A stretch of DNA of 40,023 nucleotides from an uncultured Candidatus Saccharibacteria bacterium (GTDB lineage: Bacteria > Patescibacteriota > Minisyncoccia > UBA6257 > JAKLIH01): assembly GCA_964350215.1 (NCBI GenBank), contig CAYGJE010000001.1, positions 1 through 40,023 on the forward strand, in the 5' to 3' direction. How positions within the stretch are numbered: the first letter of the stretch is position 1; every line of letters begins with the position of its first letter. Below are positions 11,908 through 27,791 of this stretch, piece after piece. Position numbers and translations under genes: made by a program. Below the pieces are notes generated by a model. That model had not been told where the DNA came from, ran no database searches, and saw only the letters and a program-made list of their open reading frames with translations.

Positions 11908-13107
11908 TTAGGCAACAACTTTTGTGACAACACCTGCTCCGACGGTTTTGCCTCCTTCACGGATAGCAAATCTTTGTTTTTCTTCTAAAGCAACTGGAGC
12001 AATCAATTTGACTTTAAATGTGGCAGTATCGCCAGGCATAACCATTTGGACTCCTTCTGCCAAGGTAACTTCACCAGTTACATCGGAAGTAAGAATAAAG
12101 AATTGTGGCTTATAACCTGTGAAAAATGGAGTATGTCTTCCACCTTCGTCTTGTGATAACACATAGACCTCTGCTTCAAATTGGGTATGTGGAGTAATTG
12201 AACCTGGTTTGGCAACTACTTGTCCACGGCGAATGTCTTCTTTCTTGATACCACGTAACAACAAACCAACATTGTCACCTGCTTGAGCGTCTTCCATGCT
12301 CTTGTTGAACATTTCAACACCAGTGATAACAGTTTTGGCTGTTGGTTGGTAACCAACTAACTCTGCTTCGTCGTTGACTTTGATATAACCACGAGCAATT
12401 CTACCAGTAACAACAGTTCCACGACCTTCGATTGTAAAGATGTCTTCGATAGGCATTAAGTATGGTTTGTCTGTTTCTCTTTCTGGTGCTGGGAAATAGG
12501 TATCAATTGCATTTAATAAGTCCATAATTGGTTGAACAGCTGGATCTTCGAAGGTTGTAGCTTCGGTTGCTTTTAAGGCAGATCCGCGGATAATAGGAAT
12601 TTCATTGCCTGGGAATTCGTATTTTGACAATAATTCACGGATTTCAGCTTCCACCAAATCAACTAATTCGGCGTCTGAAACCATGTCAACTTTGTTTAAA
12701 AATACAACCATTGCTGGCACACCGACTTGTCTTGCAAGTAAAATGTGTTCTCTGGTTTGAGGCATAGGGCCATCAGCGGCAGAAACTACTAAAATAGCTC
12801 CGTCCATTTGTGCTGAACCGGTAATCATGTTTTTGATGTAATCAACGTGTCCTGGACAGTCAATATGTGCATAGTGACGATTGTCGGTTTCATATTCTGA
12901 GTGATGAACGTTAATAGTAATACCACGAGCCTTTTCTTCTGGGGCCTTGTCAATATCGTCTATTTGAGATGCCTTTTTAATCAAACCCTTCAAAAAGAGA
13001 GCGTTTGAAATAGCGGCGGTTAATGTTGTTTTACCGTGATCAACGTGACCAATAGTACCAACATTCATGTGTGGCTTAGAGCGCACAAATTTTTCTTTTT
13101 CTGCCAT
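11908..13107 (-). CDS. tuf: elongation factor Tu
   Basis: [19 protein letters not shown] and SAL G-motifs. 399 aa, TAA stop, 20 nt upstream of rpsJ. Confidence 0.98.
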
Positions 13108-13194
13108 AATTTTTTTTTAATATTTTTTTATAAAAAATTGTTTAGTTGAAATACGTTTCAACCTTAATATTTGCTATTAAGTTTAAACATCACT

Positions 13195-13223
13195 ATATTA
13201 GCGAATTTTTTTGTAATTGTCAA
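13195..13223 (-). promoter_or_regulatory. tuf promoter GGGTATTGACA-17-TAATAT
   Basis: Minus strand reads TTGACA (13218-13223), a 17-nt spacer, then TAATAT (13195-13200). About 85-nt leader to the tuf ATG. Confidence 0.7.
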
Positions 13224-13284
13224 TACCCTGCTGAAGCAATCTTTTGATAAATATTTTGGTGATTTTATTGTTTGACTGAGGTGC

Positions 13285-13311
13285 CAAAAACTCAATATTT
13301 ATTGAGTTTTT
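13285..13311. terminator. bidirectional A/T-flanked hairpin
   Basis: AAAAA-CTCAAT-attt-ATTGAG-TTTT. Confidence 0.6.
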
Positions 13312-13320
13312 GGTGCTAAA

Positions 13321-13362
13321 AAAGAAAAAGGCACCCCGCACGGGTGCCTTTGTTTCGTTTTT
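13321..13362. terminator. GC-rich hairpin terminator after small CDS 13370..13534
   Basis: GGCACCC-cgcac-GGGTGCC, with an A-run on one side and a T-run on the other. Confidence 0.75.
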
Positions 13363-13369
13363 TGGAGAG

Positions 13370-13534
13370 CTAAGTTTCTCGCTTTCCTTCGTTGTTGAAA
13401 TTGGGGGCGGCCATTACTGGTGCATGCTCCCCTTTTTCTTTTCTGGTTTGAATACCTGCTTGACCAAAATACACGGTCAATCCAAAAAGAAAAAATACAA
13501 GAGCAAAAACACAAACTTTTTCTACCTTTTTCAT
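13370..13534 (-). CDS. 54-aa predicted secreted or membrane peptide
   Basis: Below the track size cutoff. GGAGGA lies 6 nt before the ATG. Sequence MKKVEKVCVFALVFFLFGLTVYFGQAGIQTRKEKGEHAPVMAAPNFNNEGKRET has a signal-like N-terminus. TAG stop, then a terminator. Confidence 0.5.
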   Translation of the reverse strand: MKKVEKVCVFALVFFLFGLTVYFGQAGIQTRKEKGEHAPVMAAPNFNNEGKRET

Positions 13535-13564
13535 TATATCCTCCAATTGTTTTATTTTGATAAC

Positions 13565-13593
13565 ATTATAACATATTTTTCTTGAAAATGCAA
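13565..13593 (-). promoter_or_regulatory. promoter ACACTTGCAT-17-TATAAT
   Basis: TTGCAT (13588-13593), 17-nt spacer, TATAAT (13565-13570). Confidence 0.65.
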
Positions 13594-13603
13594 GTGTTGC
13601 TGG

Positions 13604-14002
13604 CTAGTCAGCTAAGTCGCTAGGTGGGTCATAATTTTCACTTAAATACTCCCCTTCCTCCCCTTCTCTCCTGATTAGAATAAGAATATCGGAAAAACCA
13701 ATTTGTGAAAACTTTCTTTTGATATATTTTATTATACCGCTGCGAAAGTGGCTATAAAATATTGAATTTTGATTTTGAGATACAAATTTGACTACAGCAA
13801 CATCTTTTTTGGGACTATTGTTAAAAACCCCTTGTGAGGTCGCTTCATGATAAAACACCATAAAGGTTTTTATGTCTGCAATTGGGGACTGTGGTCTCTC
13901 AACCTTGCTGTTATATATTACTGTTTTTATGTATGAGACCACGCTTGCTACAAAACCCTCTTGTCTTTCGCCAAGTTTTGGCCCTGTTATTTCTATTATC
14001 AT
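13604..14002 (-). CDS. hypothetical protein (132 aa)
   Basis: Intact ORF with AAGGAG before the ATG and a TAG stop. No motif I recognise. Confidence 0.6.
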   Translation of the reverse strand: MIIEITGPKLGERQEGFVASVVSYIKTVIYNSKVERPQSPIADIKTFMVFYHEATSQGVFNNSPKKDVAVVKFVSQNQNSIFYSHFRSGIIKYIKRKFSQIGFSDILILIRREGEEGEYLSENYDPPSDLAD

Positions 14003-14040
14003 TTTTTTCTCCTTTCAAAGTACATTTTTATTTGTAAAAT

Positions 14041-14069
14041 ACTATATCATATTTTTGTTTTTTTAGCAA
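14041..14069 (-). promoter_or_regulatory. promoter GCGAACACTTGCTA-17-TATAGT
   Basis: TTGCTA (14064-14069), 17-nt spacer, TATAGT (14041-14046). Confidence 0.55.
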
Positions 14070-14080
14070 GTGTTCGCGTG

Positions 14081-14127
14081 AAAATAAAAAACGGTAGGAA
14101 TATCACATTCGTTTATATCCCTACCGT
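14081..14127 (-). terminator. intrinsic terminator after the ABC-F gene
   Basis: ACGGTAGG..ATAT/ATAT..CCTACCGT hairpin, followed by a T-run on the minus strand. Confidence 0.7.
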
Positions 14128-15806
14128 TATAACGCTTTAAATAATCGCTTCATTTCGTCTTGTACAGAAATAACATATTTTTCATAATCAGTTGCTGCTA
14201 GCAAACCATCTTTCATCATAAAAACATTATCTAAAGAAATCTGCTCAATGAAAAACCTGTCATGCGAAACAAGCAAAATCGTCCCTGTGTAAGTTTTGAG
14301 AACTTCTATTAATGCTTCGGATGCTTCAACATCTAAATGATTTGTTGGCTCGTCCAATATTAACACGTTTGCAGAAATGGCAGAAAAAAAAGCTAAAAGC
14401 AGCCTAGCCCTTCCTCCTGGACTAAGAGATCCAATTTGCTTAAAAGCTTCGGATTGCTCAAAGCCAAAATGAGAAAGTAGACAAAAAATTGCCGAATCGT
14501 CCTTTTGAGTGTTTTCTTTTATAAATTCAAAAAGATTTTTTTCTCTTGGCAAATTTTCATGCTCTTGCATTAAATTACCAATAACCAATGATTCGCCTAT
14601 TATTACCTCTCCCTGACTTGGTAGCATTTTCTTTGTAATCACCTTCAAAAACGTTGATTTACCTGATCCATTTATTCCTAAAATACCCACTCTCGCGCCA
14701 AAAGAAACTTCTAGTGAGATTGGCCCGATACTAAAATCTTTATATCCTGCTATTACATCTTTTAATTTGATGAAATGCTTACTTTCCGCTCCTGCAGGAG
14801 AAAGAACAATGGCAAATGGATTTCTTTGTTTCGGAACCTCAAGTTTTTCCATTTGTTCCAATCTTTTTTCAATAGCACTTCCTGACTTTAGCGATTTGGA
14901 GGCTCTATCACGAATTACTCCTCTTGAAAATTTATCATTGTCAGGCCTTGTTTGTGTCGCCCCTCTTAATCCCCAATCTTGCTTTTGGCGTATAGTTTTT
15001 TTTATCTTTTTGATCTCTTTTTGTTGCAATTCGTATTGATCCTTTTGTCTTTCTAACAATCTTTCTTTTTCATTAAGATACTCGCTATATTTGCCACTAA
15101 AAACATTTATAGATCTTGTAAACCAATCAATTTCAAATACTTTTCGGACTACTCTATCTAAAAATCTTCTGTCATGAGAAACTATTAAACATCCTATTTG
15201 GGAGCTTAGAATAAACTGCTCCAGCCAGATCAAAGAAGGCAGGTCTAAGTCATTAGTCGGCTCATCAAGCAGCAAAAAATCAACGCCTTTTAATAATATC
15301 GCGGTTAACGCCACCTTTCTTTTTTGACCACCGCTTAAACTGCATAACTGCCTTTCAATACCAATATCGCCTAGCCCAAAACCAGATAAGATAGTTTTCA
15401 TACGATGTTCAAAGCTATATCCTCCGAGATGTATGTATTTTTGCTGTATATCACAATATTCCTGTATGTTTTTGTTTTGACTCAATGTTTTTTCAAGCTC
15501 TGCCATCTTTTTTTCTATTTCTAATATCCCTGCAATTTTTTTAACATAATGAAAAATTGTTTCGAGGGAATCGCTGTCGCTCATGGCAATTTCTTGCGGA
15601 AGATAGCCAACGCAATCATTTTTTGATGTTATAACGCTTCCTTCGGTGGGATCTTCAAGACCCGCTACAATCTTAAGAAAAGTAGATTTACCTACACCAT
15701 TTGAGCCAACTAAGGCACATTTTTGCCCTTTTGCTATAGAAAAAGATATATCTGACAAAACATCTGTATCACAATAACTTTTTTTTATATTTTTTGCGAT
15801 TATCAT
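14127..15806 (-). CDS. ABC-F family ATPase (two ABC domains, no TM domain, 559 aa)
   Basis: Two Walker A motifs (GSNGVGKST, GINGSGKST), two signatures (LSGGQKRK, LSPGGRARL), two Walker B motifs (LLLDEPTNDLD, LILDEPTNHLD) and a charged inter-domain linker. AAGGAGG Shine-Dalgarno site. No TGA. Confidence 0.9.
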   Translation of the reverse strand: MIIAKNIKKSYCDTDVLSDISFSIAKGQKCALVGSNGVGKSTFLKIVAGLEDPTEGSVITSKNDCVGYLPQEIAMSDSDSLETIFHYVKKIAGILEIEKKMAELEKTLSQNKNIQEYCDIQQKYIHLGGYSFEHRMKTILSGFGLGDIGIERQLCSLSGGQKRKVALTAILLKGVDFLLLDEPTNDLDLPSLIWLEQFILSSQIGCLIVSHDRRFLDRVVRKVFEIDWFTRSINVFSGKYSEYLNEKERLLERQKDQYELQQKEIKKIKKTIRQKQDWGLRGATQTRPDNDKFSRGVIRDRASKSLKSGSAIEKRLEQMEKLEVPKQRNPFAIVLSPAGAESKHFIKLKDVIAGYKDFSIGPISLEVSFGARVGILGINGSGKSTFLKVITKKMLPSQGEVIIGESLVIGNLMQEHENLPREKNLFEFIKENTQKDDSAIFCLLSHFGFEQSEAFKQIGSLSPGGRARLLLAFFSAISANVLILDEPTNHLDVEASEALIEVLKTYTGTILLVSHDRFFIEQISLDNVFMMKDGLLAATDYEKYVISVQDEMKRLFKAL

Positions 15807-15843
15807 ATTTTTAACCTCCTTTTAAGATACAATGATTATTAAA

Positions 15844-15872
15844 AGCATACCATAAAATTAATAAATATGCAA
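15844..15872 (-). promoter_or_regulatory. candidate promoter TTGCAT-17-TATGCT for the ABC-F gene
   Basis: Hexamers read on the minus strand. The -10 is weak. Confidence 0.4.
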
Positions 15873-15879
15873 CCTGCAA

Positions 15880-16707
15880 TTAAGTTTTTAGTTTTTGGTA
15901 GTATGGGGCGTGATTGACTTCTTCTCTGCGGGAACCTCCATATTTAATAATTTTTTTAACGACTGGACCAATTAGCATTTTAGCCCTGTCAATATTTTTT
16001 TCAAAAATTTTTCTGGTTTTTTCAATATCTTTAAGCGACATTGTATTTCCGTATTTTTTAAGCCCGATATCATAATCTGTTATCATGGCAACTGAAGCAT
16101 ATTTTAAGCCTAATTCTTTAGCAAAATAACACTCTGGGTACTGCGTCATGTTCACCACATCTCATCCTTGTCTAATAAACCATTTGCTTTCTGCCACAGT
16201 ATTAAATCTAGGCCCCTGAATTACAGCAACCGTTCCCTTTTTATGCGCCTTTAAGCCAATTTTTAAAGACTCATCATATACTGTTTTTCTTAAAAATTCG
16301 CAATAAGGAACATCGGGAGATAGGTGAACAAAAGTGTTATCTTTTTTATGAATAATATTTCTTCCCCAAGTTAAGTCAACAAACTGATCTAAAATAACAA
16401 ATTCCCCCGGCTTAATTTTAACATTTAAACTGCCCGCGGCACAAAAAGCTACAATATATTCTACGCCTAGCTTTTTTAAAGCCACTAAATTGGCCTTATA
16501 GGGAATTCTGTCTGGTGATAAAAAATGATTGTGACCGTGTCTTGGTAAAAATAAAATCTCGTGGCCAACGTACTCGCCATAAATTATTTTGTCAGATGGT
16601 TTTCCGTATTTTGTCATTATATCTATTTTTCTAGTTTTTTTCATTTCTGGAAATTCACAAAACCCAGATCCACCTATAATTGCTATTTTAATTTTATTTT
16701 TTGGCAT
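15880..16707 (-). CDS. mtnP: purine nucleoside / 5'-methylthioadenosine (5'-deoxyadenosine) phosphorylase family (275 aa, 1 in-frame TGA)
   Basis: IAIIGGSG, LPRHG..H and ..DVVNMT..PE..LA.E.G..YA..A..TDYD motifs. ORFs 16162..16707 and 15880..16158 are joined by TGA 16162-16164. Confidence 0.85.
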
Positions 16708-18091
16708 TTATGTTTTTTAAAATATCTGGATAACTCCAAACAAAATAATTAAAGACCTTTTTTGTAAAAATGCATTGTTCGTCATCTTTAGAAATGCTTT
16801 GTTTCGAAAATTTTCTTTTTTTGTCATAATCTCAAATACATTTGCCCCCGCAAATGCTAATGGCTTCACATTTTAAGCATTTAGAGTTGTAAAGCGGTAT
16901 TAAATTTTTGTATTTAACTTTAGTGGTGTTTAATTTGCTTTTTAAGACTGCGAGGCAATCCTTTAAATTCCCTATATTATATTTGTGGCTTCAAGGGCAA
17001 AAACCCACTTCTCCATTTGGTTGCACAACCACATGACTTCCGAAACCACCACAATCTAGACGCGGCAGTTCTTTTAACTTAAACAAATTCTTTTTTTTCT
17101 CAATTTGGCACTCCAAAACCCCAATTTTTTGAGATAGTTTTCAAAAATCAATCATAAATTTTACAGCTCATTTTTGATATTTTGAAATTGAATCAACGGA
17201 AAAAAATTGCTTTATAAATTCTGACTGATCCCCTCTAAGAAGATTTATTCCTAACATTTTAATGCCATATTTTTTAAGGAAACCACAGAAATTAATAACT
17301 AACTTTCTGTTTCATTTGTGCGGTATAGCCATCATGGAGACATATGTCAACACCTTATGTTTTTTTAATAACATTATATTTTTAAAAACATCATCAAATG
17401 TCCCTCTTTTTTTATCATTAATACGGTATTGATCATTAAATTTAGCAACCCCGTCTAATGCCACAGTTACTGCAACATTGTATTTTTTAAGCATTTTAAT
17501 AATTCTTTCATTTAATAATGATCCATTAGTATCCGCCATTACCTGCAAATTTTTCTTCGGCAACTTGCCTGTTTGTTTAAGCTTTTCTATATATGATAAT
17601 ACCCACTCCAATGTCTTAATATTTAAAAAAGGCTCTCCCCCGTAGAGTATTATGGCATATTGCTTTGATGCGTCATGTTTGCCAATTAATCTTTGCCAAA
17701 CATCTATTCCTTTCTTGGCAGTTGCTGTTGACATTAACTGCTCGTCTTTAGAATCTTTGGAAGAACAAGAAAAAGGGCAATAACTGCATTTAAAATTGCA
17801 ACTACGCGTTAATACCAAGTAAAGCGTGTCTATCTCATAATTTATTTTGCTTTGCAATTTTTTAATTTCCTTTTTTTCATCTTGCAAATTGTCAACTATT
17901 AATTTTCGTCTTATCAGTTTTTTAATAATTTTATGATTTGCGCTTTTATTTAAAACAAACAAATTGCTCCACTCTTTTTTCTGCAAATAAATTATTTCTG
18001 GATGTAATCTATGAAAAACAGCAATTTTGTTTTTTTTCAAACTGGTTGATAAAAATTTGGAAAATAAAATATTACTGCCCTTTTTGTTCAT
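16694..18091 (-). CDS. radical SAM enzyme with full SPASM domain and about 95-aa N-terminal extension (465 aa, 5 in-frame TGA)
   Basis: CNFKCSYC (CX3CX2C). Hand translation past TGA 17312 gives CGGFGSHVVVQPNGEVGFC and CLKCEAISICGGKC (CX2CX5CX3C). The TAA at 16694 overlaps the mtnP start by 14 nt. Confidence 0.85.
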
Positions 18092-18124
18092 GATAATTCT
18101 GTCTTATAAAATTTTACGACAATC

Positions 18125-18319
18125 TTATTTGTTGCCTCCTCGCTTAACAACAGCTGAAACCAAATCTTTCCATTGTTGCAATGTCATTTTTACGGTATTA
18201 TTGAAATCATCTCTAACAAACACTTCGTCGCCCTTGTATTCTACGGTTGGACAACATCCTCTGACGCCGCATCCTTTAATAATTATGCTTTTGGGCTCAT
18301 TAATTTTTTTCGATGGCAT
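18125..18319 (-). CDS. 64-aa Cys-rich small protein, DUF397-like pattern. Candidate substrate or partner of the radical SAM enzyme
   Basis: KGCGVRGCCPTVEY..VFVRDDFNNTVKMTLQQWKDLVSAVVKRG resembles the DUF397 pattern C-VEV..v.vRDS....l.ft..eW..F...vk.G. Lies 33 nt upstream of the rSAM gene. Confidence 0.6.
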   Translation of the reverse strand: MPSKKINEPKSIIIKGCGVRGCCPTVEYKGDEVFVRDDFNNTVKMTLQQWKDLVSAVVKRGGNK

Positions 18320-18423
18320 AATATATAATGTTAATAAAATTATTAAAAAATATTTCGACCTTTAAAAAATCTGCTATAATTTTAAATTAATTATCATTAT
18401 TTTATGTCTCCTTATGTAATTTT

Positions 18424-18452
18424 ATTGTAATATATTTTTCTTAAAAATGCAA
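18424..18452 (-). promoter_or_regulatory. promoter GCGAACACTTGCAT-17-TACAAT for the small-protein/rSAM/mtnP operon
   Basis: TTGCAT (18447-18452), 17-nt spacer, TACAAT (18424-18429). Confidence 0.6.
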
Positions 18453-18469
18453 GTGTTCGCAAAAAATAA

Positions 18470-18710
18470 AAAACCCCGCCGGTGCGGGGGTCCAGCTAAA
18501 TATAGCTGGGGGTAAAATCTAGTTCTTAGGACCTTCCATCTATCCCTGCTAAATTATTTTCTAAATTTGCTAGATGTTTAGGTCTTCCCAAATTAATAGA
18601 TTTTAAATCAAAATACCCTGATCTCCTGACAGGCCTGGAAGACATCATCCCTTGGTAAAGAGCAAAGTTCGCCAAAGCGCCCAGCATAAAGCTGGGCTCT
18701 TTTTTATTTT
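18470..18710. ncRNA. unclassified structured RNA candidate (about 220 nt), strand unresolved
   Basis: No ORF in the region. Bounded by two GC hairpins: CCCCGCC-ggt-GCGGGGG at the left and GCCCAGC-ataa-GCTGGGC at the right. Contains a long composite helix 18512-18605 (TAAAATCTA/TAGATTTTA, AGGACC/GGTCTT, CATCTA/TAGATG, GC-AAATT/AATTT-GC). Confidence 0.45.
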
Positions 18711-18742
18711 TTATTTAAATTCATAAAAAAGTCAATATATCG

Positions 18743-18789
18743 TGAATTGGGTGTGTTTTATAGGGGTAATTCAAGATTTTTGTGATAAA
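18743..18789. repeat. 47-bp direct repeat, right-hand partner at 20423..20469
   Basis: TGAATTGGGTGTGTTTTATAGGGGTAATTCA[a/c]GATTTTTGTGATAAA, 46/47 identical, exactly 1680 bp apart. Confidence 0.92.
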
Positions 18790-18808
18790 TATTTAATGAT
18801 GATGTTTT

Positions 18809-19642
18809 TTAGCTTTCAACCAAGTATTGCTGAACCATTTGTTTATAATGGTCACAATAATTTTCAATAAAAGCTCCGTCTTCGAAAAGCGGCATTAAAT
18901 CTTCTTTGAGATATTTGGTATTAATTTTTTGGACCAAATCGTTTAATTTTGAGTACAATTCTTCTAAGCTGTCAATTTTTAAAGTGTCTTTGATAAATTC
19001 CATATTAGGAATAATTCCTTTTTGCAAATATCAAAGAAGATCAAAATAATCTCTACCTTTAAAATTATAATTGGCATCGTCGCCTTTAAAATATTTACGT
19101 GTAAAAATTGCACAGATTTTGGAGGCCATTAGTGTTTCCAAATCATAGTTTCTGATTATGAAGTTAAAACCCAAGGCCGAGACGGAGGTTAAGTCAGTTT
19201 TGTAAGTCCCGGAAATCGCGTCTGATATTTCGAGCTTGACATAAAGCTTGTCAGAATCGTTTTCATCAGCGATTCCCAATTCTTTTAAAATTGGAAATTT
19301 AAAATATATTTTTTCATACTGGCCTGAAATAGAATATTCTAAATTGTCAACTAAAAATTTTTGTTTAAAGTATTTTAAAATATCTTCTGCTAGATCTTTT
19401 TTGTTTATATCCTTGCCCTGTTCAGTGTCCATGTCAATATCCTCAGACAATCTATTCAATCCGTAGCAAACGCGCAAAGCGCTTCCGCCAATAAAAATCA
19501 AGTGCCTGCCGTATTCAGAATTATATAAAAAATTCAAAAAATAATATTGAAGATGTTGCTTCAAAAGATTACGAATTACTTCTTTAGGAACATCATCCTC
19601 AAGCTTGTTAGCGACAATTGTTTTTAATTCTTGTATAATCAT
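18809..19642 (-). CDS. abiEii: AbiEii-type nucleotidyltransferase toxin (277 aa, 1 in-frame TGA)
   Basis: LIFIGGSALR..YGL.RLSEDIDM NTase motif. ORFs 19031..19642 and 18809..19027 are joined by TGA 19031-19033 (..GRDYFDLL-W-YLQKG..). Confidence 0.8.
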
Positions 19643-19648
19643 AGCTTT

Positions 19649-20287
19649 TTATTTATAAATGCTTTTTTTTAAAATACTCGCGATACGTTTCATTTTTTTT
19701 GATTTTGATTGCAAGCAATAGTCATAAAATAAATTAAAATCATCTTTTGAAAAGTTTTCCCAGTTAATGCGTAAATCTTCTAAAATTTCTTGCTTCAACT
19801 TGTTGCTAATATTTTTTTTAAGATATAAATAATCAAAAACTGCTTTTGATTTGTTGGCCTCAAAATAAACATTGGAAAGATATCTTTTTTCGCTATAACC
19901 AAAATAAAAATCTTTTTTTATAGAATAATAGATGAAGGATCCTAAAAAATTCTGATATTGTTTTCTAGTTTTTAATGTAACAGAAGTAATGCCATATATG
20001 GCTTCAGTGAGTAAATTATACTTTTGCATAACATATTCCTTGCTCAGATACGAAGGGCTCTTCAGTTGGCTAGCGACATATTCTCTCAACCCATCTTTGT
20101 CTTTTGATCTAACATAAAAATCATTAGACATGTAAAGTCCATTTTTAAGCTTTAAAATACTACCTGTTTTAAAGGCATATTTAATCTGAGCGTTTAATGT
20201 ATTAATTTTCCCTTTAAAATATATCGCTATATTTTGCTTGGAAAATAAAGGCATATTTTTTATAATCTCTTCTACGTTTTTTCCCAT
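19649..20287 (-). CDS. abiEi: AbiEi-family antitoxin / transcriptional regulator
   Basis: Lies 6 nt upstream of abiEii. The segment S.EY....Y.L..E.IYGITSVT....R.....G.F.Y..IK...Y.GY is typical of AbiEi_4-like proteins. Confidence 0.7.
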   Translation of the reverse strand: MGKNVEEIIKNMPLFSKQNIAIYFKGKINTLNAQIKYAFKTGSILKLKNGLYMSNDFYVRSKDKDGLREYVASQLKSPSYLSKEYVMQKYNLLTEAIYGITSVTLKTRKQYQNFLGSFIYYSIKKDFYFGYSEKRYLSNVYFEANKSKAVFDYLYLKKNISNKLKQEILEDLRINWENFSKDDFNLFYDYCLQSKSKKMKRIASILKKSIYK

Positions 20288-20318
20288 TTGATTTAGTTTT
20301 AGTATACTTTATATACTA

Positions 20319-20347
20319 ATTCTACATTAAAAAGTAATAAAAGTCAA
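20319..20347 (-). promoter_or_regulatory. abiEi promoter GGGTATTGACT-17-TAGAAT with downstream 8-bp inverted repeat
   Basis: TTGACT (20342-20347), 17-nt spacer, TAGAAT (20319-20324). TTAGTATA-cttta-TATACTAA at 20299-20319 lies between the -10 and the ATG. Confidence 0.65.
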
Positions 20348-20422
20348 TACCCTACCCCGAGGAAGAGACATCTTGGGCAAAGCTATTCATTTTGCAAAAC
20401 ATGTCTGTTTGCCCAAAAAACT

Positions 20423-20469
20423 TGAATTGGGTGTGTTTTATAGGGGTAATTCACGATTTTTGTGATAAA
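20423..20469. repeat. 47-bp direct repeat, partner of 18743..18789
   Basis: See 18743..18789. Confidence 0.92.
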
Positions 20470-20470
20470 C

Positions 20471-20494
20471 AAAAAGGGCGTTTAAGGTACGCCC
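20471..20494 (-). terminator. intrinsic terminator after CDS 20501..20857
   Basis: GGGCGT-n7-ACGCCC, followed by TTTTT on the minus strand, starting 7 nt after the TGA. Confidence 0.75.
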
Positions 20495-20500
20495 AAAACC

Positions 20501-20857
20501 TCAGTTGATTATGGCTTTTTCTAGTGGCCCATCTCGGTAAAAAGTAGAAGTTTGATGGTCAGGACGAGTTTCTTTTGGTTCAATCGTTGCCAAAACATGA
20601 TCATATGAAAATATTGCTTTGAACTCCTGTAATTTTTCTCCCAGCTTTTGGCGAAAGTCCTCAGTTGGGTTTATGCCCGCCAACGAACTCTCAAGCAATT
20701 CGAGTTCCCGTTCAAATTCTGTAAACGGTTTGTCAAAAAAAGGTATTTTAGCAAATTCGTCTATCTTTTGGTTTGCCAGGTCAAAAAGATATCTATCCAT
20801 ATTTTCATTTGCTACCATTTCTTTGATCTCTTCTATAGAACAATCAAAATCGTTCAT
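20501..20857 (-). CDS. hypothetical acidic protein (118 aa if TGA is a stop, 139 aa ending at TAA 20438 if TGA is read as Trp)
   Basis: GGAGGTG Shine-Dalgarno site 5 nt before the ATG. The ORF ends in TGA immediately before a terminator hairpin. No internal TGA or TGG. Confidence 0.6.
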   Translation of the reverse strand: MNDFDCSIEEIKEMVANENMDRYLFDLANQKIDEFAKIPFFDKPFTEFERELELLESSLAGINPTEDFRQKLGEKLQEFKAIFSYDHVLATIEPKETRPDHQTSTFYRDGPLEKAIIN

Positions 20858-20886
20858 ACTTCACCTCCTCTCAATATGCTGATTAT

Positions 20887-20915
20887 ATTATAGCATAATT
20901 TCACAATAAATGCAC
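20887..20915 (-). promoter_or_regulatory. promoter GTGCAT-17-TATAAT for CDS 20501..20857
   Basis: Hexamers read on the minus strand. Confidence 0.5.
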
Positions 20916-21082
20916 CTCGCGCTTATAAATAATTTTAGTATAGTTTTTGTTTGTTGTCGGTGGTTATTCCATGCACAAAATATGTTATTTTTATGGACAT
21001 GAGTATTGTTAATAATATTAATTTTATTAAAATAATTATTTTTAGCCCTTAATACTGCACAAAAGTTTTCCACAGAAAACTA

Positions 21083-21110
21083 TTGCTTTTTCTGTAATTT
21101 GTGGTATAAT
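21083..21110 (+). promoter_or_regulatory. plus-strand promoter TATTGCTT-16-TGgTATAAT (extended -10)
   Basis: TTGCTT 21083-21088, TGG 21102-21104, TATAAT 21105-21110. Confidence 0.6.
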
Positions 21111-21117
21111 AATAATA

Positions 21118-21190
21118 GGTACTTGTGAGGGCTTTGGCTCTCCCACGGTTCAAGGAAATACCATAAACCGTAGACAGGTGCCGTTTTTAT
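21118..21190 (+). ncRNA. about 70-nt three-way-junction small RNA candidate
   Basis: Predicted TSS at G21118. P1 GGTACTTGT/ACAGGTGCC is 9 bp with 2 G-U pairs that would be A-C mismatches on the other strand. P2 GAGGGC-tttg-GCTCTC, P3 ACGGTT-n15-AACCGT, then GTTTTTATT. Confidence 0.5.
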
Positions 21191-21702
21191 TGATTTTCTA
21201 AATCTCCCTCGTGGAGATTTTTTATTTTATTTCCCGACGAGTCCCTTTTTGGCTTTCAAAAAGGTATAATGCTTCAAAAATAGCACTCCCCTCCCACTAT
21301 TCTTTTGACTATAATTTTTATTCTAACTCCCTTTATTACTGCAACAAAGCCATAATATTGGACGCCTACAAATTTTCTTTCTCAGCGTGAATTTATTCGT
21401 TGTCGTTCAAAAGATTTTGTTTCATAAATTTCTTGTAAAGTGTGCGATTCTTTGATTATTTTTGGAGCGAGTTCGAGCAATCTCAATCTAACATATTGCT
21501 CTTTTAATGGCCTTGCCTTGTTCCATCCGTGAAGTTTTATATGATCCAATCCTTTTGCATTAAAAGAAACCTCCTCTTTTAAATAAGGACAATAAACCTG
21601 CCCAATTGTTTTGTAAAAATTTTGAGCAGATTCTTTTGCTTTTTTGAATTTTTCTGTTTCATTAAAGTTCATCATCATAGCTTCTAACGGAGTATTTGTC
21701 AT
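21187..21702 (-). CDS. putative toxin partner of the Panacea-domain antitoxin (171 aa, 3 in-frame TGA), family not recognised
   Basis: ORF 21382..21702 continues through TGA to the TAA at 21187 (..RINSR-W-ERKFVGVQYYGFVAVIKGVRIKIIVKRIVGGECYF-W-SIIPF-W-KPK..). Its start overlaps the upstream gene by 41 nt. Confidence 0.6.
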
Positions 21703-22441
21703 CTCGATAAAAAACGCTTTCGTAGTTTATAGGTTCGCCATCTTTATACGCTTTTCAAGGTATGTCGCCGTGCGAATAATCGGTCATTTCTTTGGCATTT
21801 TTGTTTGAAAGACGATCCAAAACTTCGTCTATATGGGATAATTCCTGAGCATTCAAAACGAGCAGATTTGGATCCCTGAGCGCGATAAACTTTTTTTGCT
21901 CATAATCAAAAACTTTATTAAAAACGGCGAGTATTTCTTTGTTTTTCTCCATTTCTTTGAGAATTATTTTCAATTCACAGGGTGTGGGGCCATAATGGTT
22001 CTTGATGTATGTGGCTCCAATCAATTGCTTTTCGTATTTTTCATAGTAGTCAAAGTCAATAAAATACAGCAGCTTGTTAATAACGCTTTCACCTACATTT
22101 GGCTTGTTGCCTACTTTAACTAGAATATATAGAAAAACCTCTTTGAGCTTTTCTATGTTCTTTTGAGGGACATTAATCCGCATATCTTCTTCTGTCTTTT
22201 TGATGCTTTTGGTTTTTTTGACTTCAATATCAATTTTAAATTCTTTTTTGGCAATTAAATTGTTGACCGGTATTTGGAAAATACCAGCTAATTTTTCTAG
22301 TTCTTTATATGTTAAATCTTTTTTGCCTGATTCAACTTTTTCATAGGTTGGCCTGGACATACCCAGTTTGCTTGCTATAAAAGCTTTTGATAGATTGTGA
22401 CTCAATCTAGTTTTTTTGATAAATTCATTGATCATATTCAA
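21662..22441 (-). CDS. XRE-type HTH fused to DUF4065/Panacea (SocA-like) antitoxin domain (259 aa, 1 in-frame TGA)
   Basis: N-terminal HTH (LSKAFIASKLGMSRPTYEKVESGKKDLTYKELEKLA). C-terminal NKLLYFIDFDYY...G.TYIKNHYGP.P.....L..M and ..YSHGDIP-W-KAY.. Confidence 0.7.
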
Positions 22442-22459
22442 AAATTAGCTATTGACTAT

Positions 22460-22488
22460 ATTTTAGCAAATGTAAAATATTTTGTCAA
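22460..22488 (-). promoter_or_regulatory. promoter TATTGACA-17-TAAAAT
   Basis: TTGACA 22483-22488 and TAAAAT 22460-22465, 18 nt before the ATG. Confidence 0.65.
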
Positions 22489-22506
22489 TAGTCGTTGTAA
22501 AGATTT

Positions 22507-22923
22507 TTACCAATCTTTTGGGTTGGTTTTGCGGCTTTGTTTCTTTTGGGATTTTTCTTTTTTGACTTTTAGACGTTTTTCTTGGCTTGATCTGGTGGGC
22601 CTGGTTTTCTTTCTTGGCTTTTGTTCTTGAAGGGCTTCGTGGATTAGCAAGTATAGCTTTTGGATGACCCCTTGCCTGTTTTTGGATTGCTCTCGATATT
22701 CTTCGGCTTCTAGAATCAAAAACCCTTCTTTATTGATTTTGTTTTTTAAGCGTGCTTTGATCTTGTGCTTTTGGAAATCAGAAAATATCAATGAATTGTT
22801 GATGTTTCATTTGAGCTGGACTTTGGATGATACTTTGTTGACGTTTTGACCTCCGCTGCCAGATGATCTAACAAAGTTTAGCTCTATTTCGTCCTCAATG
22901 ATTGAGTGATTGATATTTGGCAT
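22507..22923 (-). CDS. arfB: ribosome rescue peptidyl-tRNA hydrolase ArfB (138 aa, 1 in-frame TGA)
   Basis: Hand-translated N-terminus MPNINHSIIEDEIELNFVRSSGSGGQNVNKVSSKVQLK-W-NI.. contains the GGQ motif. Basic C-terminal tail ..RKKTRPTRSSQEKRLKVKK... Confidence 0.85.
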
Positions 22924-22946
22924 TTGTTTATGGTGTTATTTTGTTT

Positions 22947-22989
22947 TATATATTGTAGCATAAAAGTTTTAAATTTTGTAATTAAGTTG
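22947..22989 (-). promoter_or_regulatory. 43-bp repeated promoter region (copy upstream of arfB)
   Basis: 42/43 identical to 24005..24047. Minus strand contains TTACAA-18-TACAAT. Confidence 0.6.
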
Positions 22990-22993
22990 ATTT

Positions 22994-23986
22994 TTATTTA
23001 ATTAAATTGATTATTAAGTTAATCATAACCTCCTTCTCTTCTGGACCACTGACTGACACTAAAAGAATTAGAGTTACTAAGGTGTTTTCTGAAATTTTAA
23101 GTTCATGGTTTTTGTCAAACAAAAAATTGTTTTTGTTTAGAAAGTATACAAAAAGAATAGCTGCAATCTTTTTGTTGCCATCGACAAAAGGATGTCCCTT
23201 GACGGCTAAATACAATAAATTGGCGGCTTTTTCTTCTACGGTCTTGTATAATTCCTTTTTATCAAAAGTTTGATGAATTGCCCCAATAATTCCCCTTAAT
23301 TTTTCCTCTTTGTTTTGAACTCCAAACAGATCAGTCAGTTCGTTGTTTTTATTCAACTGTTCTCTCATGCCGTTGATCACATCCAAACATTCTTCGTAGC
23401 TTAAAGAAGTTTTGTTTTTGTTCTTGGCTGTGTTTTTTAAAGACCTGAAGTCGTATTGACCTAGAATAGTCAATGATTTGGTGTATCTTTGGATAATATC
23501 AACTAATTCTTTTTCTTGGCCAATTAATATTGGCGTCTTGATCTTGTTATATATCAAGCTAACTGTGTCTTGCAGTTTTAAAATTTCTTTCTTCTGCTGC
23601 TCTAATAATCTTTTTTCGTTTAAAACATATCCTTTTAATAAATATTGTTTTAATGTTTTGGTGGCTCAAATACGAAAAGCCGTGCCAGCTTTGGATTTGA
23701 CTCTGTAGCCAACAGAAATAATGACGTCGAGATTGTAGTAAAGAGTGGGTTTTTTAGCAAATTCGGAATTTCCGAATTTCTTAATTGTCTGTATTTTATT
23801 TAACTCCCTTTCGGCGTATATATTTTGAATGTGTTCGTTAATGGTCGCCCTTGCTTTACCAAATAGCTGAGACATCTGTTCCTGACTTAGCCAAACGGTG
23901 TTTTTATCAATATCCACTTTGATCTGAATATTGTTGTTTTTGTCTTTATACAAAACTAATTTTTTGTTGTCGTCTTTTTTTGCCAT
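22994..23986 (-). CDS. RhuM-family N-terminal domain fused to Fic/Doc domain (330 aa, 1 in-frame TGA)
   Basis: ORFs 23666..23986 and 22994..23557 are in the same frame. TGA gives ..GTAFRI-W-ATKTLKQYLLKGY.., matching the conserved RhuM FR.WAT motif. Fic motif HPFVDGNKKIAA. Confidence 0.85.
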
Positions 23987-24004
23987 TATTGGTTTTTAGT
24001 TTAT

Positions 24005-24047
24005 TATATATTGTAGCACAAAAGTTTTAAATTTTGTAATTAAGTTG
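24005..24047 (-). promoter_or_regulatory. 43-bp repeated promoter region (copy upstream of the RhuM-Fic gene)
   Basis: See 22947..22989. Confidence 0.6.
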
Positions 24048-24145
24048 GTTTAGTTTTCCACAGTGGGTATTGACTTTTTTATAATCATTTGACAATATAT
24101 AGACACTAAACACAGGGGTGGACGTTTCGCATGTCCATCCCGCTT

Positions 24146-25375
24146 CTATTTGAGTAACCAATTTCTAAAAGAAACAATGTTGACAATTTTACCGTTAATT
24201 TTTTCTATTCTATCGGTGTCAGGAGTAATTATTAATAAATTATCACAACTCAATTCATTACTAGCTTGCAATAAAGCATTTATCTCTCTTTCTTCGGTCC
24301 GCTTACTAGAAATATCAAAGCAAACCTGTATTAATTGGTGAATTTTGTGAATATCTTTTAAAACAAAATCTATCTCTTTGTTGTTTTTTGTTTTATAATA
24401 AAACAAGTATGAATTGGGAGCATAGCCCTGTTTTGTCAACTCAGTGAACACTAAATTTTCAAAAAATAATCCGTTGCTAGGAGAGTTAAATAAATTTTTG
24501 TATGACAAAATGCCATTATCAACAACATATAATTTTTTAGCAGATTTCAAATGGTTGGAAGTTTTAAAGCTAAAGCCAGATAGCAAATAAAACAAGTAGC
24601 AATTTTGAATATAGCTTAAATATCTTTTTAGAGTACGGAAACTAGTTAGTTCACAGGTTTCTCCCATTTTTTTATAGTTCACAATATTGCAAGTGTTGGC
24701 AATTAAATATGCTATCATTAACTCAATTTTTTCTGGATCTTTTACTCGATAGCGTCTAGTGATATCTTTATATAGAATAGAAGACACTAAATTGTCTATG
24801 TATGACACCAAATCAACATCTTTAACTACAACCTCAGGAAAACCACCTTGCTTAAGAAATTTACTTAGCAAATCTGTTTGATTGTTAAACTTTGTATATT
24901 CAGAATAATTAAATGGTAATATTTCTAAAGTTCGATATCTGCCAGTTAAAGAGCTGGCAAATTCGGTACTTAATAAATTAGAGTTGGATCCTGTTATAAA
25001 AACATTGTAACCTTCGCGTTGTAGTTTGTTTAAATACAAATCCCAGCTTGGTAAATTTTGTATTTCGTCAAACAAAATAGCATTGGTTTTGCCATAAACT
25101 TCTTCTAAGGCATCAGTAAACTCATTCTTGTTTGATATATTCTGCAATAATTCTTCGTCGTCAAAATTGGCATACATAAAATCAATCCCCTGCAACAGGA
25201 GAAACAAAAAAGTTGATTTCCCGGCCCTGCGAGGCCCGGTAATAATCTTAATCAGTCCTGGCTTTAGCAGTTCTTCTTTTTCGTTTAATTGATCACGCAA
25301 AACAAAATCAGATGGCAAAAAGGCATCTTTTCGTGTTTTTTGTCTTTTTATTATATTTATCAATTCTTGGTTCAT
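24146..25375 (-). CDS. AAA-type ATPase with DUF4143-like C-terminal domain (409 aa)
   Basis: Walker A GPRRAGKST and Walker B ILFDEIQ. Overall layout matches AAA_14 plus DUF4143 proteins. TAG stop. Trp encoded as TGG. Confidence 0.75.
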   Translation of the reverse strand: MNQELINIIKRQKTRKDAFLPSDFVLRDQLNEKEELLKPGLIKIITGPRRAGKSTFLFLLLQGIDFMYANFDDEELLQNISNKNEFTDALEEVYGKTNAILFDEIQNLPSWDLYLNKLQREGYNVFITGSNSNLLSTEFASSLTGRYRTLEILPFNYSEYTKFNNQTDLLSKFLKQGGFPEVVVKDVDLVSYIDNLVSSILYKDITRRYRVKDPEKIELMIAYLIANTCNIVNYKKMGETCELTSFRTLKRYLSYIQNCYLFYLLSGFSFKTSNHLKSAKKLYVVDNGILSYKNLFNSPSNGLFFENLVFTELTKQGYAPNSYLFYYKTKNNKEIDFVLKDIHKIHQLIQVCFDISSKRTEEREINALLQASNELSCDNLLIITPDTDRIEKINGKIVNIVSFRNWLLK

Positions 25376-25443
25376 GGCTTGGTTTTATTGTGTTTTTGCT
25401 CTAAATGTCAATAGTTTAGTATCTTGTATTGTTATATAGAGTA

Positions 25444-25472
25444 ATATTAGCAATTATTATTGTTTTTGTCAA
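25444..25472 (-). promoter_or_regulatory. promoter TATTGACA-17-TAATAT upstream of the ATPase gene
   Basis: TTGACA 25467-25472 and TAATAT 25444-25449. Two further TATTGACA boxes lie at 25407 and 25513. Confidence 0.55.
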
Positions 25473-25625
25473 TAGACCGTAGAAATAATAACGTATTATT
25501 CCTTGCCCTCCTTGTCAATATGCTGGTATTTTCAGCATACTGAATTCTCTTTAAATTGTTAGCGTTTACTTAATAATTGAGTTTTTATTAAGCCCCTTCT
25601 TTGTATATATCCTGCCATAAAAAAA

Positions 25626-25672
25626 TATACAAAAACACCCGCGAAAATCCGAAGGGATTTTCGCGGGTGTTG
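25626..25672 (-). terminator. strong intrinsic terminator after fusA
   Basis: Perfect 16-bp stem ACACCCGCGAAAATCC-gaag-GGATTTTCGCGGGTGT, then a T-run on the minus strand, starting 5 nt after the TAA. Confidence 0.9.
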
Positions 25673-25676
25673 TTTT

Positions 25677-27791
25677 TTATTCTCGCACAGTTGGTTTTCT
25701 GGTTGAAATAATTTCTTCAGCAATATTTCTTGGAACTTCTTGATAATGGCTAAACTCCATTGTAAATGATCCTCTTCCCTCGGTGACTGATCTAAGATTG
25801 GTGGCATAGCCAAACATCTCAGATAGTGGGACTTGGGCATCAACAACTTTGAGCCCCAAACGATCGTTCATCTCTTCGATGCGACCTCGCTTGGAAGAAA
25901 TATCTCCAATGACATCTCCCAAAAATGGTTCAGGCACGATGACTTCGAGTTTCATGATTGGTTCTAGAATAACTGGTTGAGCTTTTAATGCTGCCTCTTT
26001 GAAAGCCATGGAAGCGGCAATCTTGAAAGCAAATTCTGAAGAGTCAACATCGTGGAACGAACCATCAAACAAAGTGACTTTTAAGTCAGATATTGGATAA
26101 CTTGCCAAAATACCTCGCTCAAGTGCTTCTTTTACACCTTTGTTGACTGATGGAATAAATTCTTGAGGAATTGCACCACCTTTGATTTCACTAACAAATT
26201 CAAATCCTTTACCTCTTTCCAATGGTTCAATCTTCAATCATACATGGCCGTATTGACCTTTACCACCAGATTGTCTGATGTATTTGCCTTCAGCTTCCGA
26301 TTTGCCATTGATGGTTTCTCGATAAGCAACTTGTGGCTTACCAGCATTGACTTCAACGTTGAATTCTCTTTTCATGCGATCCATCATAATGTCTAAGTGA
26401 AGTTCACCCATGCCACCAATGATAGTGTCATTGGTTTCTTCATCGGTCTTGACCACAAATGTTGGGTCTTCGTCGACAAGTTTTCTCAATGCTTCGCCCA
26501 TTTTGTCTTGGTCTGTTTTTGTTTTTGGTTCGATGCGTAGAGAAATAACTGGATCAGGAAAAACAATGTTTTCTAGAATAATTGGATGGTCAACATCACA
26601 AATGGTGTCACCTGTTTTGGTGTCTTTGAGGCCAACAGTGGCAGCAATATCGCCTGCCTCGATATCATCGATATCATCTCGTTTGTTGGAAAACATTCGG
26701 ATTAAACGACTAATTCTTTCTTGTTTATTTTTGTTGGAATTTAAAACATAGGTTCCTTTGGTGAGTTTGCCAGAATAGACCCTAAAAAATGCCAATGTAC
26801 CTACATATGGATCAGTAGCAATTTTGAAAACAAGTGCTGCAAAAGGTTCTTTTTCATCGGCTTTGCGTTGAACTTTTTCGCCTTTTTCGCCATCACCTTC
26901 CACAGGAGGTAAATCCAATGGACTTGGCAGAAAATCAACAACAGCATCCAACATCAATTGAACACCTTTGTTTTTAAATGCAGTGCCGCAAACAACAGGA
27001 ACTATTTTGTAGGCAATAACTGATTTACGAAGAGACGCTCTCAACTCTTCTATGGTAAATGTTTCGCCATTGAGGTATCTTTCAGTGAGATTGTCATCTT
27101 CGGAAGCAATTTTTTCTATCAGTTCGTCGTGTCTGGCTTTGGCTAATTCTTGCATATCTTCTGGAATATCAGACAAAGTGACGATTTCTCCATGAGCACC
27201 TTCAAAGGTTACTTTTTTCATTCTCATCAAATCGATAACGCCAATGAAATTTTCTTCTTTACCAATTGGTAATGTGAGAGCAACTGCGTTTGGGGTTAAT
27301 CTTTCGCGGATCATGACTAAATCTTTTTCAAAATCAGCGCCCATACGATCTAATTTGTTGACAAAACAAATTCTAGGAACAGAATATTTGTCGGCTTGTC
27401 TTCAAACCGTCTCTGATTGTGGTTCTACTCCAGCAACACCGTCAAACACAACAACAGCTCCATCCAAAACTCTAAGTGAGCGTTGAACTTCGGCAGTAAA
27501 GTCGATGTGACCTGGAGTGTCGATAACGTTTATTTTGTGTTTAAAATCTTGGTTGTTTTCTCTGTAGCTTGGCACTCAAAAACAAGTAGTGGCAGCAGAA
27601 GTAATAGTAATACCTCTTTCACGTTCTTGTTCCATTCAGTCCATAATAGCTCCGCCATCGTGAACTTCACCAATCTTGTGAGAAAGACCGGTATAAAAAA
27701 GTATACGTTCAGAAGTTGTGGTTTTGCCGGCATCGATGTGGGCAATAATACCAATGTTTCTGACTTTGTCTAATGGATATGTTTGGGACAT
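25677..27791 (-). CDS. fusA: elongation factor G (704 aa, 4 in-frame TGA)
   Basis: [14 protein letters not shown] and NKLD motifs. TGA codons fall at [36 protein letters not shown] and GKGQYGHV-W. Confidence 0.98.

Follow-up and report, generated by a model that had tools for sequence, protein, structure and literature searches.

The genes rpsL, rpsG, fusA and tuf of the str operon are normally contiguous and co-transcribed. Regions in which variable cargo, including defence and toxin–antitoxin (TA) genes, collects between two core genes without a dedicated integrase are a well-known kind of hotspot. Between the translation operons of Proteobacteria, too, insertions of several genes have been described; in Salmonella, for instance, bfd-bfr-hopD separates str from S10 (Brandis, Cao and Hughes 2019, PMC6735719). 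By the reasoning of that study, DNA added to the translation supercluster is neutral only if it lands after a stop codon and ahead of the next promoter. Here we analysed a 40,023-nt stretch of DNA (hereafter the window) from an uncultured Candidatus Saccharibacteria bacterium, a member of the tiny-celled Patescibacteria (contig CAYGJE010000001.1 of GCA_964350215.1). The window is part of the ENA metagenome contig ERZ27247823 k141_472478 (45.5 kb). Its fusA and tuf genes are 12,569 bp apart (13108-25676), bearing out the 12.5-kb separation reported in an earlier note on this DNA, and both junctions recur in independent assemblies. Comparison with relatives makes it likely that the fusA-tuf interval of this Minisyncoccia/Paceibacterota lineage, which reads TGA as tryptophan (genetic code 4), is an integrase-free flexible hotspot built in layers, and not a single mobile element.

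Two core genes flank the interval, which replaces the adjacency of the canonical rpsL-rpsG-fusA-tuf operon with a gap of 12,569 bp:

25677-27791 (-), fusA, encoding EF-G of 704 amino acids (aa), called under translation table 4; left core flank
11908-13107 (-), tuf, encoding EF-Tu of 399 aa; right core flank, beyond which lie the S10 and spc operons

Translation of the region revealed four in-frame TGA codons in fusA, which ends in TAA. Three of the four fall, without alignment, at what we take to be conserved tryptophans of Escherichia coli EF-G (in the contexts D-W-M, F-W and V-W-R). From these in-frame TGA codons it follows that the genome uses code 4, and over the annotated genes TGA accounts for 43 of 69 tryptophan codons and terminates no gene; the reading of rpsC (7296-7982) and of a radical SAM gene (16694-18091) depends on it as well. 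With table 11, open reading frame (ORF) calling had broken up fusA and many other genes; the in-frame TGA codons prompted the change to table 4. The first code-4 Patescibacteriota were reported in the class Minisyncoccia by the 2026 gTranslate preprint (10.64898/2026.05.24.727570), and the contig probably stems from one of the code-4 Minisyncoccia groups of that preprint. Every relative of its EF-Tu in species-representative genomes belongs to Patescibacteria and carries the label Paceibacterota, Minisyncoccia or 'Parcubacteria'; the best reaches 88% identity. Under table 4 the gap contains 12 ORFs of 132-559 aa and two small ones (54 and 64 aa), all on the minus strand. The fourteen genes counted previously thus stand under code 4, which the earlier note does not mention and which alters all of the ORF calls; under another code the number is not valid.

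The window proteins were mapped by tblastn (code 4) on 160 tuf-centred loci, half of them taken from species-representative genomes and half from metagenome contigs (80 each). fusA lies upstream of tuf in 120 of these loci, at a median distance of 295 bp in one set and 198 bp in the other, most relatives having the two genes 50-430 bp apart; 21 gaps exceeded 600 bp, ten exceeded 2 kb and the largest was 6.5 kb. Eight loci had no fusA within at least 5 kb of tuf. Adjacency is therefore the rule in the phylum, and the junction has been broken repeatedly. The code-4 clade, marked by in-frame TGA in fusA, comprised the loci L004, L007, L094 and L097; in those that branch more deeply (Tuf 80-81%), fusA and tuf are 423 bp (L007), 147 bp (L094) and 132 bp (L097) apart. 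Across the 160 loci, no cargo gene of the window occurs within 10 kb of tuf; the sole exception is a homologue of the ribosome-rescue factor ArfB in L094, which precedes rpsL by 2.4 kb. A tie of ArfB to the str region on account of code 4 was considered and set aside: L094 has it there and about 150 code-11 loci do not, a sample that is too small and confounded by phylogeny.

The edges of the variable interval are formed by two predicted transcription signals:

25634-25671 (-), intrinsic terminator after fusA: perfect 17-bp stem with 9 G-C pairs, 4-nt loop and T-rich tail; left edge
13108-13228 (-), tuf promoter and conserved 5′ leader; right edge

The perfect-stem terminator placed after fusA by the earlier note is thus real, and a hairpin occupies the same position after fusA in the alignment with L004. 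Its claim that tuf has a promoter of its own likewise stood, the promoter-like site being GGGTATTGACA-17-TAATAT (TTGACA-17-TAATAT) at 13223-13195 (-) and conserved in relatives. In two alignments of the tuf upstream region (A1 and A5), close relatives are nearly identical from the ATG back to the -35 element and share no homology beyond it. The fusA terminator and this -35-limited homology therefore bound the variable interval, and these bounds match the stop-codon-to-promoter argument of Brandis et al. (PMC6735719). TTGAC-17-TAATAT also precedes tuf in relatives with adjacent fusA and tuf; tuf was probably a transcription unit of its own before any insertion, because a promoter lies between the two genes even there. 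To say that the island 'splits the str operon' is for the same reason an overstatement. On sequence grounds, strong termination is predicted downstream of fusA and initiation from a conserved promoter ahead of tuf. The tuf 5′ leader (13108-13190, minus strand; about 85 nt from promoter to ATG) is highly conserved in the subclade with Tuf identities of 87-100% and contains two short hairpins (CTTAATA..TATTAAG and GTTGAA..TTCAAC) whose loop sequences vary between relatives; it could be a regulatory leader.

Between these edges, family scans of the ORFs (Pfam, NCBIfam, PADLOC and PHROGs) and RNA scans (Rfam) gave the following picture, listed from fusA towards tuf, with identities to two related loci, L171 and L174, that are compared below:

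24146-25375 (-), AAA_14/DUF4143 ATPase; PADLOC candidate defence family PDC-S01, E = 7e-93; no TGA codon
22994-23986 (-), RhuM-Fic fusion; PADLOC candidate defence family PDC-S23, E = 4e-112; between the two copies of repeat D1
22507-22923 (-), ArfB, ribosome-rescue peptidyl-tRNA hydrolase; NCBIfam NF006718, 146.6 bits against a cutoff of 100
21662-22441 (-), helix-turn-helix (HTH) protein with Panacea-domain antitoxin; PF13274, E = 7e-17
21187-21702 (-), 171-aa ORF overlapping the end of the Panacea gene; three in-frame TGA codons
20438-20857 (-), 139-aa protein with no assigned function; 88% identical copy in L174
18807-20347 (-), AbiE cassette: own promoter-like site, AbiEi (19649-20287) and AbiEii (18809-19642)
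18125-18319 (-), 64-aa Cys-containing ORF with the motif GCGVRGCCP, directly upstream of the radical SAM gene; copy in L174 89% identical
16694-18091 (-), radical SAM/SPASM peptide maturase; Radical_SAM, Fer4_12 and SPASM domains; five TGA-encoded tryptophans
15880-16707 (-), MTAP-like nucleoside phosphorylase; TIGR01694, 244 bits against a cutoff of 275
14127-15806 (-), ABC-F translation factor (ribosomal-protection-like); NF000355, 418.8 bits against a cutoff of 380; 78.5% identical to L171
13604-14002 (-), 132-aa protein with no assigned function; present in L174 (83%), absent in L171
13370-13534 (-), 54-aa ORF with a hydrophobic N-terminal stretch, terminator at 13327-13351; copy in L171 56% identical, same position

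The profile scans confirmed the families named earlier, i.e. AbiE, HTH-Panacea, RhuM-Fic and AAA_14/DUF4143. PADLOC called AbiEi (E = 6e-36) and AbiEii (E = 1.9e-32; PF08843 E = 1.4e-24) as directly adjoining genes, 6 bp apart, the latter encoding a nucleotidyltransferase; with PDC-S01, PDC-S23 and the Panacea-domain antitoxin, they give the gap the make-up of a defence island, the PDC families being candidate defence systems that are not validated. The 171-aa ORF, whose sole family match is a weak one to LPD3 (E = 5e-4, under the curated cutoff), is a candidate cognate toxin of the Panacea antitoxin. ArfB is a small RF-1-type protein with GGQ at residues 24-26, a Lys/Arg-rich tail and a score above the equivalog cutoff, and the ABC-F protein combines two ABC_tran domains with ABC_tran_Xtn (Pfam) and likewise scores above its family cutoff. 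For the radical SAM gene the best NCBIfam matches are peptide-maturase families, all under their equivalog cutoffs; the 64-aa ORF, with a promoter-like repeat upstream (18424-18457), is a candidate precursor peptide of this cluster. About half of the gap genes are defence- or TA-related, and the rest are translation-related, metabolic, unassigned or part of the peptide-maturase cluster with MTAP. Judged from these families, the cargo probably acts in phage defence of the abortive-infection or TA type, in making peptides and in rescuing translation, and probably plays no part in how fusA and tuf are expressed.

The nearest other species, represented by L171 (GCA_964475745.1; Tuf 93.5%, EF-G 90.5%), separates an older layer from a younger one. 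Its gene order reads rpoA, rplQ, rplM, rpsI, rpsL, rpsG, fusA, a gene for a 1173-aa surface protein, ArfB, ABC-F, a 48-aa ORF, tuf. ArfB is 69% and ABC-F 78.5% identical to the window proteins, and the 48-aa ORF matches the 54-aa ORF at 56%; L171 has none of the window's defence or TA genes and also lacks its radical SAM, MTAP and 132-aa genes. ArfB, ABC-F and the small peptide gene are thus an older, translation-related backbone between fusA and tuf and, as they occupy the same place in both, this backbone predates the split of the two species. ABC-F homologues of 50-57% identity are widespread (among the matches listed, two are named Parcubacteria or bacterial metagenome-assembled genome proteins), closer ones reach 88% and 79%, and their spread through Patescibacteria, where ABC-F is widely conserved, is consistent with vertical inheritance. 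A single 12.5-kb accessory island, as first proposed, does not fit this backbone. Under the refuting condition that the note itself had named, the part made of translation factors counts as an older fixed arrangement; the defence and TA cargo is variable.

At a much shorter distance, L174 (Logan SRR27460159) shows the younger layer in motion. This locus is about 96% identical to the window at the nucleotide level over 16.7 kb (Tuf 99.5%) and collinear with it from the 64-aa ORF to secY, and its copy of ArfB is 96% identical. In place of the Panacea pair, L174 has a 70-aa ORF and MetK; AbiE is missing, with the 46-nt repeat D4 present just once; and the locus has an intact opposite-strand gene for a 210-aa cysteine-rich protein, of which the window keeps the last ~40 codons and the terminator.

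The rest of the subclade fills the same interval with other genes. L004, L175 and L093 (Tuf 88%) have a 2.1-kb gap with two paralogous genes (256 and 259 aa), in L091 (Tuf 91%) the gene for a large surface protein of GLUG/Fn3 type stops 150 bp short of tuf, and L176 (Tuf 87%) carries at least 10 kb of other genes without reaching fusA. The contig of L179 stops within the conserved promoter-leader segment of tuf. It carries at least 15.3 kb of other cargo, among it MetK, an AbiE cassette, DUF2177 and DUF6512, and has no fusA. The cargo of L176 and L179 shows that the 12.5 kb of the window are neither unique nor the largest in the subclade. L171, L174, L176 and L179 were found through exact-protein look-ups of homologues and had been missed by the scan of GTDB representatives. 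As the window, L174, L171, L004/L175, L091, L176 and L179 all differ in content at one and the same interval, the proposal of an accessory and defence hotspot holds in that cargo turns over at this site in close relatives; it went too far in that only about half of the genes in the gap concern defence or TA.

Outside this subclade, 13 distant Patescibacteria loci, some labelled Doudnabacteria, have a small gene of similar N-terminal sequence between fusA and tuf (L040, L051, L055, L056, L058, L059, L063, L070, L072, L076, L080, L081 and L082). The one copy scanned, from L082, gave a weak Phd/YefM-antitoxin-like match. Variable cargo often lies beside this gene—that of L063 looks, from N-terminal sequence, like carotenoid-synthesis genes—and several of these loci have 2-2.6 kb inserted between tuf and rpsJ.

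Several repeat pairs occur in the gap, exceeding chance expectation and in agreement with the earlier description. Those next to cassettes, together with the remnant of the opposite-strand gene, are:

20423-20468 (-), D4 left copy, 46-nt direct repeat; overlaps the stop end of the 139-aa gene
18743-18788 (-), D4 right copy, one mismatch to the left copy; the pair brackets AbiE
23986-24051 (-), D1 upstream copy, 66 nt, promoter region; 85% identical to the downstream copy
22928-22993 (-), D1 downstream copy, starting right after the RhuM-Fic stop and directly upstream of ArfB
18532-18697 (+), relic of the opposite-strand gene: last ~40 codons and terminator (18679-18697); intact 210-aa gene in L174

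Aligned to L174 (alignment A4), the AbiE cassette appears as an insertion or deletion (indel) between the D4 copies, L174 presenting the empty site with one copy. The unit of promoter, AbiEi and AbiEii (18807-20347) recurs without D4 at different sites in L179 (85% nucleotide identity) and L180 (73%) and, because it is found in these two other contexts, is mobile. The downstream D1 copy is probably the ArfB promoter, judging by its position, and in L179 a 76-nt repeat of terminator plus promoter (91% identical) brackets a 1.3-kb cassette of three genes. Among 173 loci, the D4 core was found only in contigs of the window's own species. The intergenic segment between the AAA_14/DUF4143 and RhuM-Fic genes (24052-24150) matches two intergenic sites of the unrelated L180 (32 nt at 97% and ~100 nt at 73%); it holds a GGGTATTGAC-type promoter sequence in opposite orientation, forming an inverted repeat with the tuf promoter (13194-13228), and might represent a promoter module common to both loci or a small repetitive element.

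Two candidate small RNAs (sRNAs) had been proposed in the gap, a proposal that found no support. Rfam returned nothing there, either at gathering thresholds (whole window) or at E ≤ 1 (gap), apart from weak matches that are terminator hairpins. The only structured non-coding stretch found in the gap, 18466-18720 (255 nt, folding z = -4.4), was rejected as an sRNA, its 'sRNA-like' structure arising because it holds the relic of the 210-aa gene and two terminators; one of the proposed sRNAs is this relic.

Composition sets the gap apart only mildly. Measured against 27 kb of flank, it is lower in GC (32.0% vs. 35.8-37.4%, the non-ribosomal left flank included), and its tetranucleotide profile correlates less well with the flanks (r = 0.89-0.92) than these do with each other (0.96-0.97). 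The compositional contrast between island and flanks, for which the earlier note proposed a check, is thus present in GC and tetranucleotides but missing at third codon positions (GC3) and, since GC3 does not differ, composition only weakly supports a foreign origin. TGA encodes tryptophan in eight of the 12 larger gap genes and serves nowhere as a stop, so these genes evolved in a code-4 background. Its share of tryptophan codons is 14/29 in the gap and 29/40 in the flanks (Fisher p = 0.048). The AAA_14/DUF4143, AbiEi and ABC-F genes have no TGA among their six tryptophan codons, an absence that is a weak clue at best because ABC-F is clearly vertical.

These observations add up to a layered history. 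Ancestrally, fusA and tuf were adjacent, with the tuf promoter already between them; the sub-lineage to which both the window and L171 belong then came to have ArfB, ABC-F and the small peptide gene between the two. Later, self-contained cassettes, many of which appear to have promoter-like sites of their own, were gained, swapped or lost around this backbone: AAA_14/DUF4143, RhuM-Fic, the HTH-Panacea TA pair, AbiE, the radical-SAM peptide cluster with MTAP, and the unassigned genes. Such turnover takes place even between lineages about 96% identical. Insertions may be tolerated here because DNA added downstream of the fusA terminator and upstream of the tuf promoter would disturb neither gene. 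Cargo would have moved by recombination without a dedicated recombinase, the likely routes being homologous replacement with the conserved flanking translation genes as arms, and the entry or exit of DNA at direct repeats of 46-76 nt that consist of terminator or promoter sequence.

Several points weigh against this history. All relatives are metagenome contigs, many of them short, and some absences mean 'not within the contig'. The AbiE difference could be an insertion in the window or a deletion in L174, and MetK may have been replaced by the TA pair or the reverse. The repeats could be strong promoter or terminator consensus modules that flank genes by chance and are not recombination substrates. 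GC3 of gap and flank genes overlaps fully, an ATPase resembling type IV coupling proteins is encoded about 9 kb upstream, and the insulation by terminator and promoter is itself predicted from sequence.

A more specific mechanism, which we put forward tentatively and regard as rather improbable in this form, would make the region upstream of tuf an integrase-free cassette-exchange site: promoter-bearing cassettes would recombine at the 46-76-nt repeats, by Campbell-type integration of circularised cassettes or by repeat-mediated excision, with fusA and tuf as homology arms between species. Under this mechanism, AbiEii and the other cargo with TGA-encoded tryptophan would have come only from other code-4 genomes. 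Were it true, cargo organised as in an integron, without an integron integrase, would exist inside the translation supercluster.

It is less probable still, and unlikely overall, that the operon underwent an ancient expansion specific to this lineage and has since been fixed, every gene between fusA and tuf being a stable resident recruited to the translation supercluster. The backbone in L171 and the MTAP-ABC-F adjacency, found also in L173 and L174, would fit such an expansion, as would the TGA-encoded tryptophan in eight of 12 larger genes, a GC3 equal to that of the flanks and the recurrence of the same layout at ≥99% identity in contigs of several runs and samples. Against it stand the lack of the defence and TA genes, radical SAM, MTAP and the 132-aa gene in L171, the three indels or replacements that distinguish L174 at ~96% identity, the unrelated cargo of L004, L091, L176 and L179, and the absence of the cargo within 10 kb of tuf in 160 relatives save for ArfB in L094. 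For the defence half of the interval, fixed expansion is already refuted.

A single integrated element—an integrative and conjugative or integrative and mobilizable element, a prophage remnant or a transposon—that inserted once, decayed and lost its integrase is very improbable. Clustered defence and TA genes are typical of mobile islands, GC is lower than in the flanks, and the coupling-protein-like ATPase lies within about 9 kb. Yet Pfam, NCBIfam, PADLOC and PHROGs revealed no integrase, transposase, recombinase, relaxase or phage gene among the gap ORFs, PHROGs found no phage structural or integration gene among those without a family, and the gap has no tRNA, the sole one in the window being at 39914-39987; the earlier statement that integrase, transposase and tRNA are lacking at the borders thus extends to the gap as a whole. 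Nor was there, among the largest repeat families (those listed), an att-like direct repeat pairing the two island borders, and neither the AbiE segment in a plasmid collection nor D4 in viral contigs found a match. The interval is moreover a mosaic whose parts are distributed differently among relatives.

That the contig is a chimera joining the fusA and tuf regions to unrelated DNA, as might be suspected from a short-read metagenome assembly and from several independent contigs that break at the internal repeats D4 and D1, is effectively refuted, since assemblies made independently from other samples span the two junctions and the DNA between them at 99.2-99.96% identity (L085, Logan ERR3094301, 99.6%, window 35428-20424, rpsL through fusA; L089, JGI 3300037067, 20751-18575; L002, another ENA sample, 99.96%, 16615-11432) and L174 is collinear with the window from 18532 to 1921. 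These reproduced joins exclude chimeric assembly, and the mis-assembly that would have undone the 12.5-kb separation was not borne out.

The layered hotspot thus remains the reading that we prefer, and some features of the cargo and its surroundings may be added to it. The MTAP-like gene directly follows the radical SAM maturase, and in L174 MetK, an S-adenosylmethionine (SAM) synthetase (L174 1000-1989), lies about 2 kb upstream; MetK, radical SAM and MTAP would respectively make SAM, consume SAM and clear the by-product deoxyadenosine or methylthioadenosine.

Gene order beyond fusA is rearranged. rpsM, rpsK, rpsD, rpoA, rplQ, rplM and rpsI (28813-32696) lie immediately upstream of rpsL (28355-28768); the alpha-operon genes do not follow secY (929-2200), and rpoB and rpoC are not upstream of rpsL. 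L171 and L175 have the same order of alpha genes, rplM and rpsI before rpsL, which therefore represents a lineage-level rearrangement of the translation supercluster; among the called genes of L084, an infA-like gene precedes rpsM. Ribosomal protein S9 (28813-29418) has 201 aa, with a Lys/Ala-rich N-terminal extension of ~70 residues. Farther upstream, 34986-36638 (-) encodes the coupling-protein-like ATPase, a 550-aa protein matching type IV coupling-protein families (TrwB_AAD_bind, T4SS-DNA_transf and DUF87) and ending in a C-terminal treble-clef zinc finger, ~9 kb from the island. Its neighbours (33230-34840 and 36665-37933) encode large proteins without a family match, and the ATPase may be part of a DNA-transfer or DNA-uptake apparatus.

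Current concepts are left unchanged by these findings, which extend the hotspot idea to a new place and lineage. The most conserved bacterial gene string can host a fast-evolving accessory region if its neighbours have a terminator and a promoter of their own. The locus is well bounded, with occupied and empty AbiE alleles in hand, and lends itself to following gene gain and loss in uncultured, genome-reduced Patescibacteria. TGA-encoded tryptophan in the cargo could trace DNA exchange partners among recoded lineages, and ArfB and ABC-F between EF-G and EF-Tu offer a small, tidy case of functionally related genes gathering.

Compared with known systems, the interval shares with core-gene-flanked hotspots and defence islands the variable accessory genes between two core genes, the clustered defence and TA genes, the lack of a dedicated integrase and the mildly higher AT content. 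It differs from them in that its flanks, fusA and tuf, belong to the translation supercluster, that an ArfB/ABC-F backbone lies inside, that its cassettes are bracketed by 46-76-nt repeats and that the host is a code-4 member of the Patescibacteria with a very small genome. Horizontally acquired islands in Patescibacteria and gene exchange mostly within the phylum also feature in the passages of a groundwater study (PMC12455944) that bear on this subject, and those passages describe no fusA-tuf hotspot or cassette-level polymorphism. As in known AbiE modules (type IV TA or abortive infection), an AbiEi-like gene is directly followed by that for the AbiEii nucleotidyltransferase, behind a promoter-like site of its own; here, in contrast, the predicted module is an indel bracketed by a 46-nt direct repeat, and AbiEii contains a TGA tryptophan codon. 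Like the insertions described by Brandis et al., the cargo consists of genes without mobility functions within the rpoBC-str-S10-spc-alpha cluster, in which the alpha cluster is here also rearranged. The insertions of that study separate str from S10 or rrnB from tufB and are small and long stable (PMC6735719), whereas the present ones lie between fusA and tuf, reach more than 15 kb and vary between lineages about 96% identical. The kind of region is thus familiar; what is unusual is the fusA-tuf position, the embedded ArfB/ABC-F backbone and, in a code-4 lineage, polymorphism of single cassettes associated with long direct repeats.

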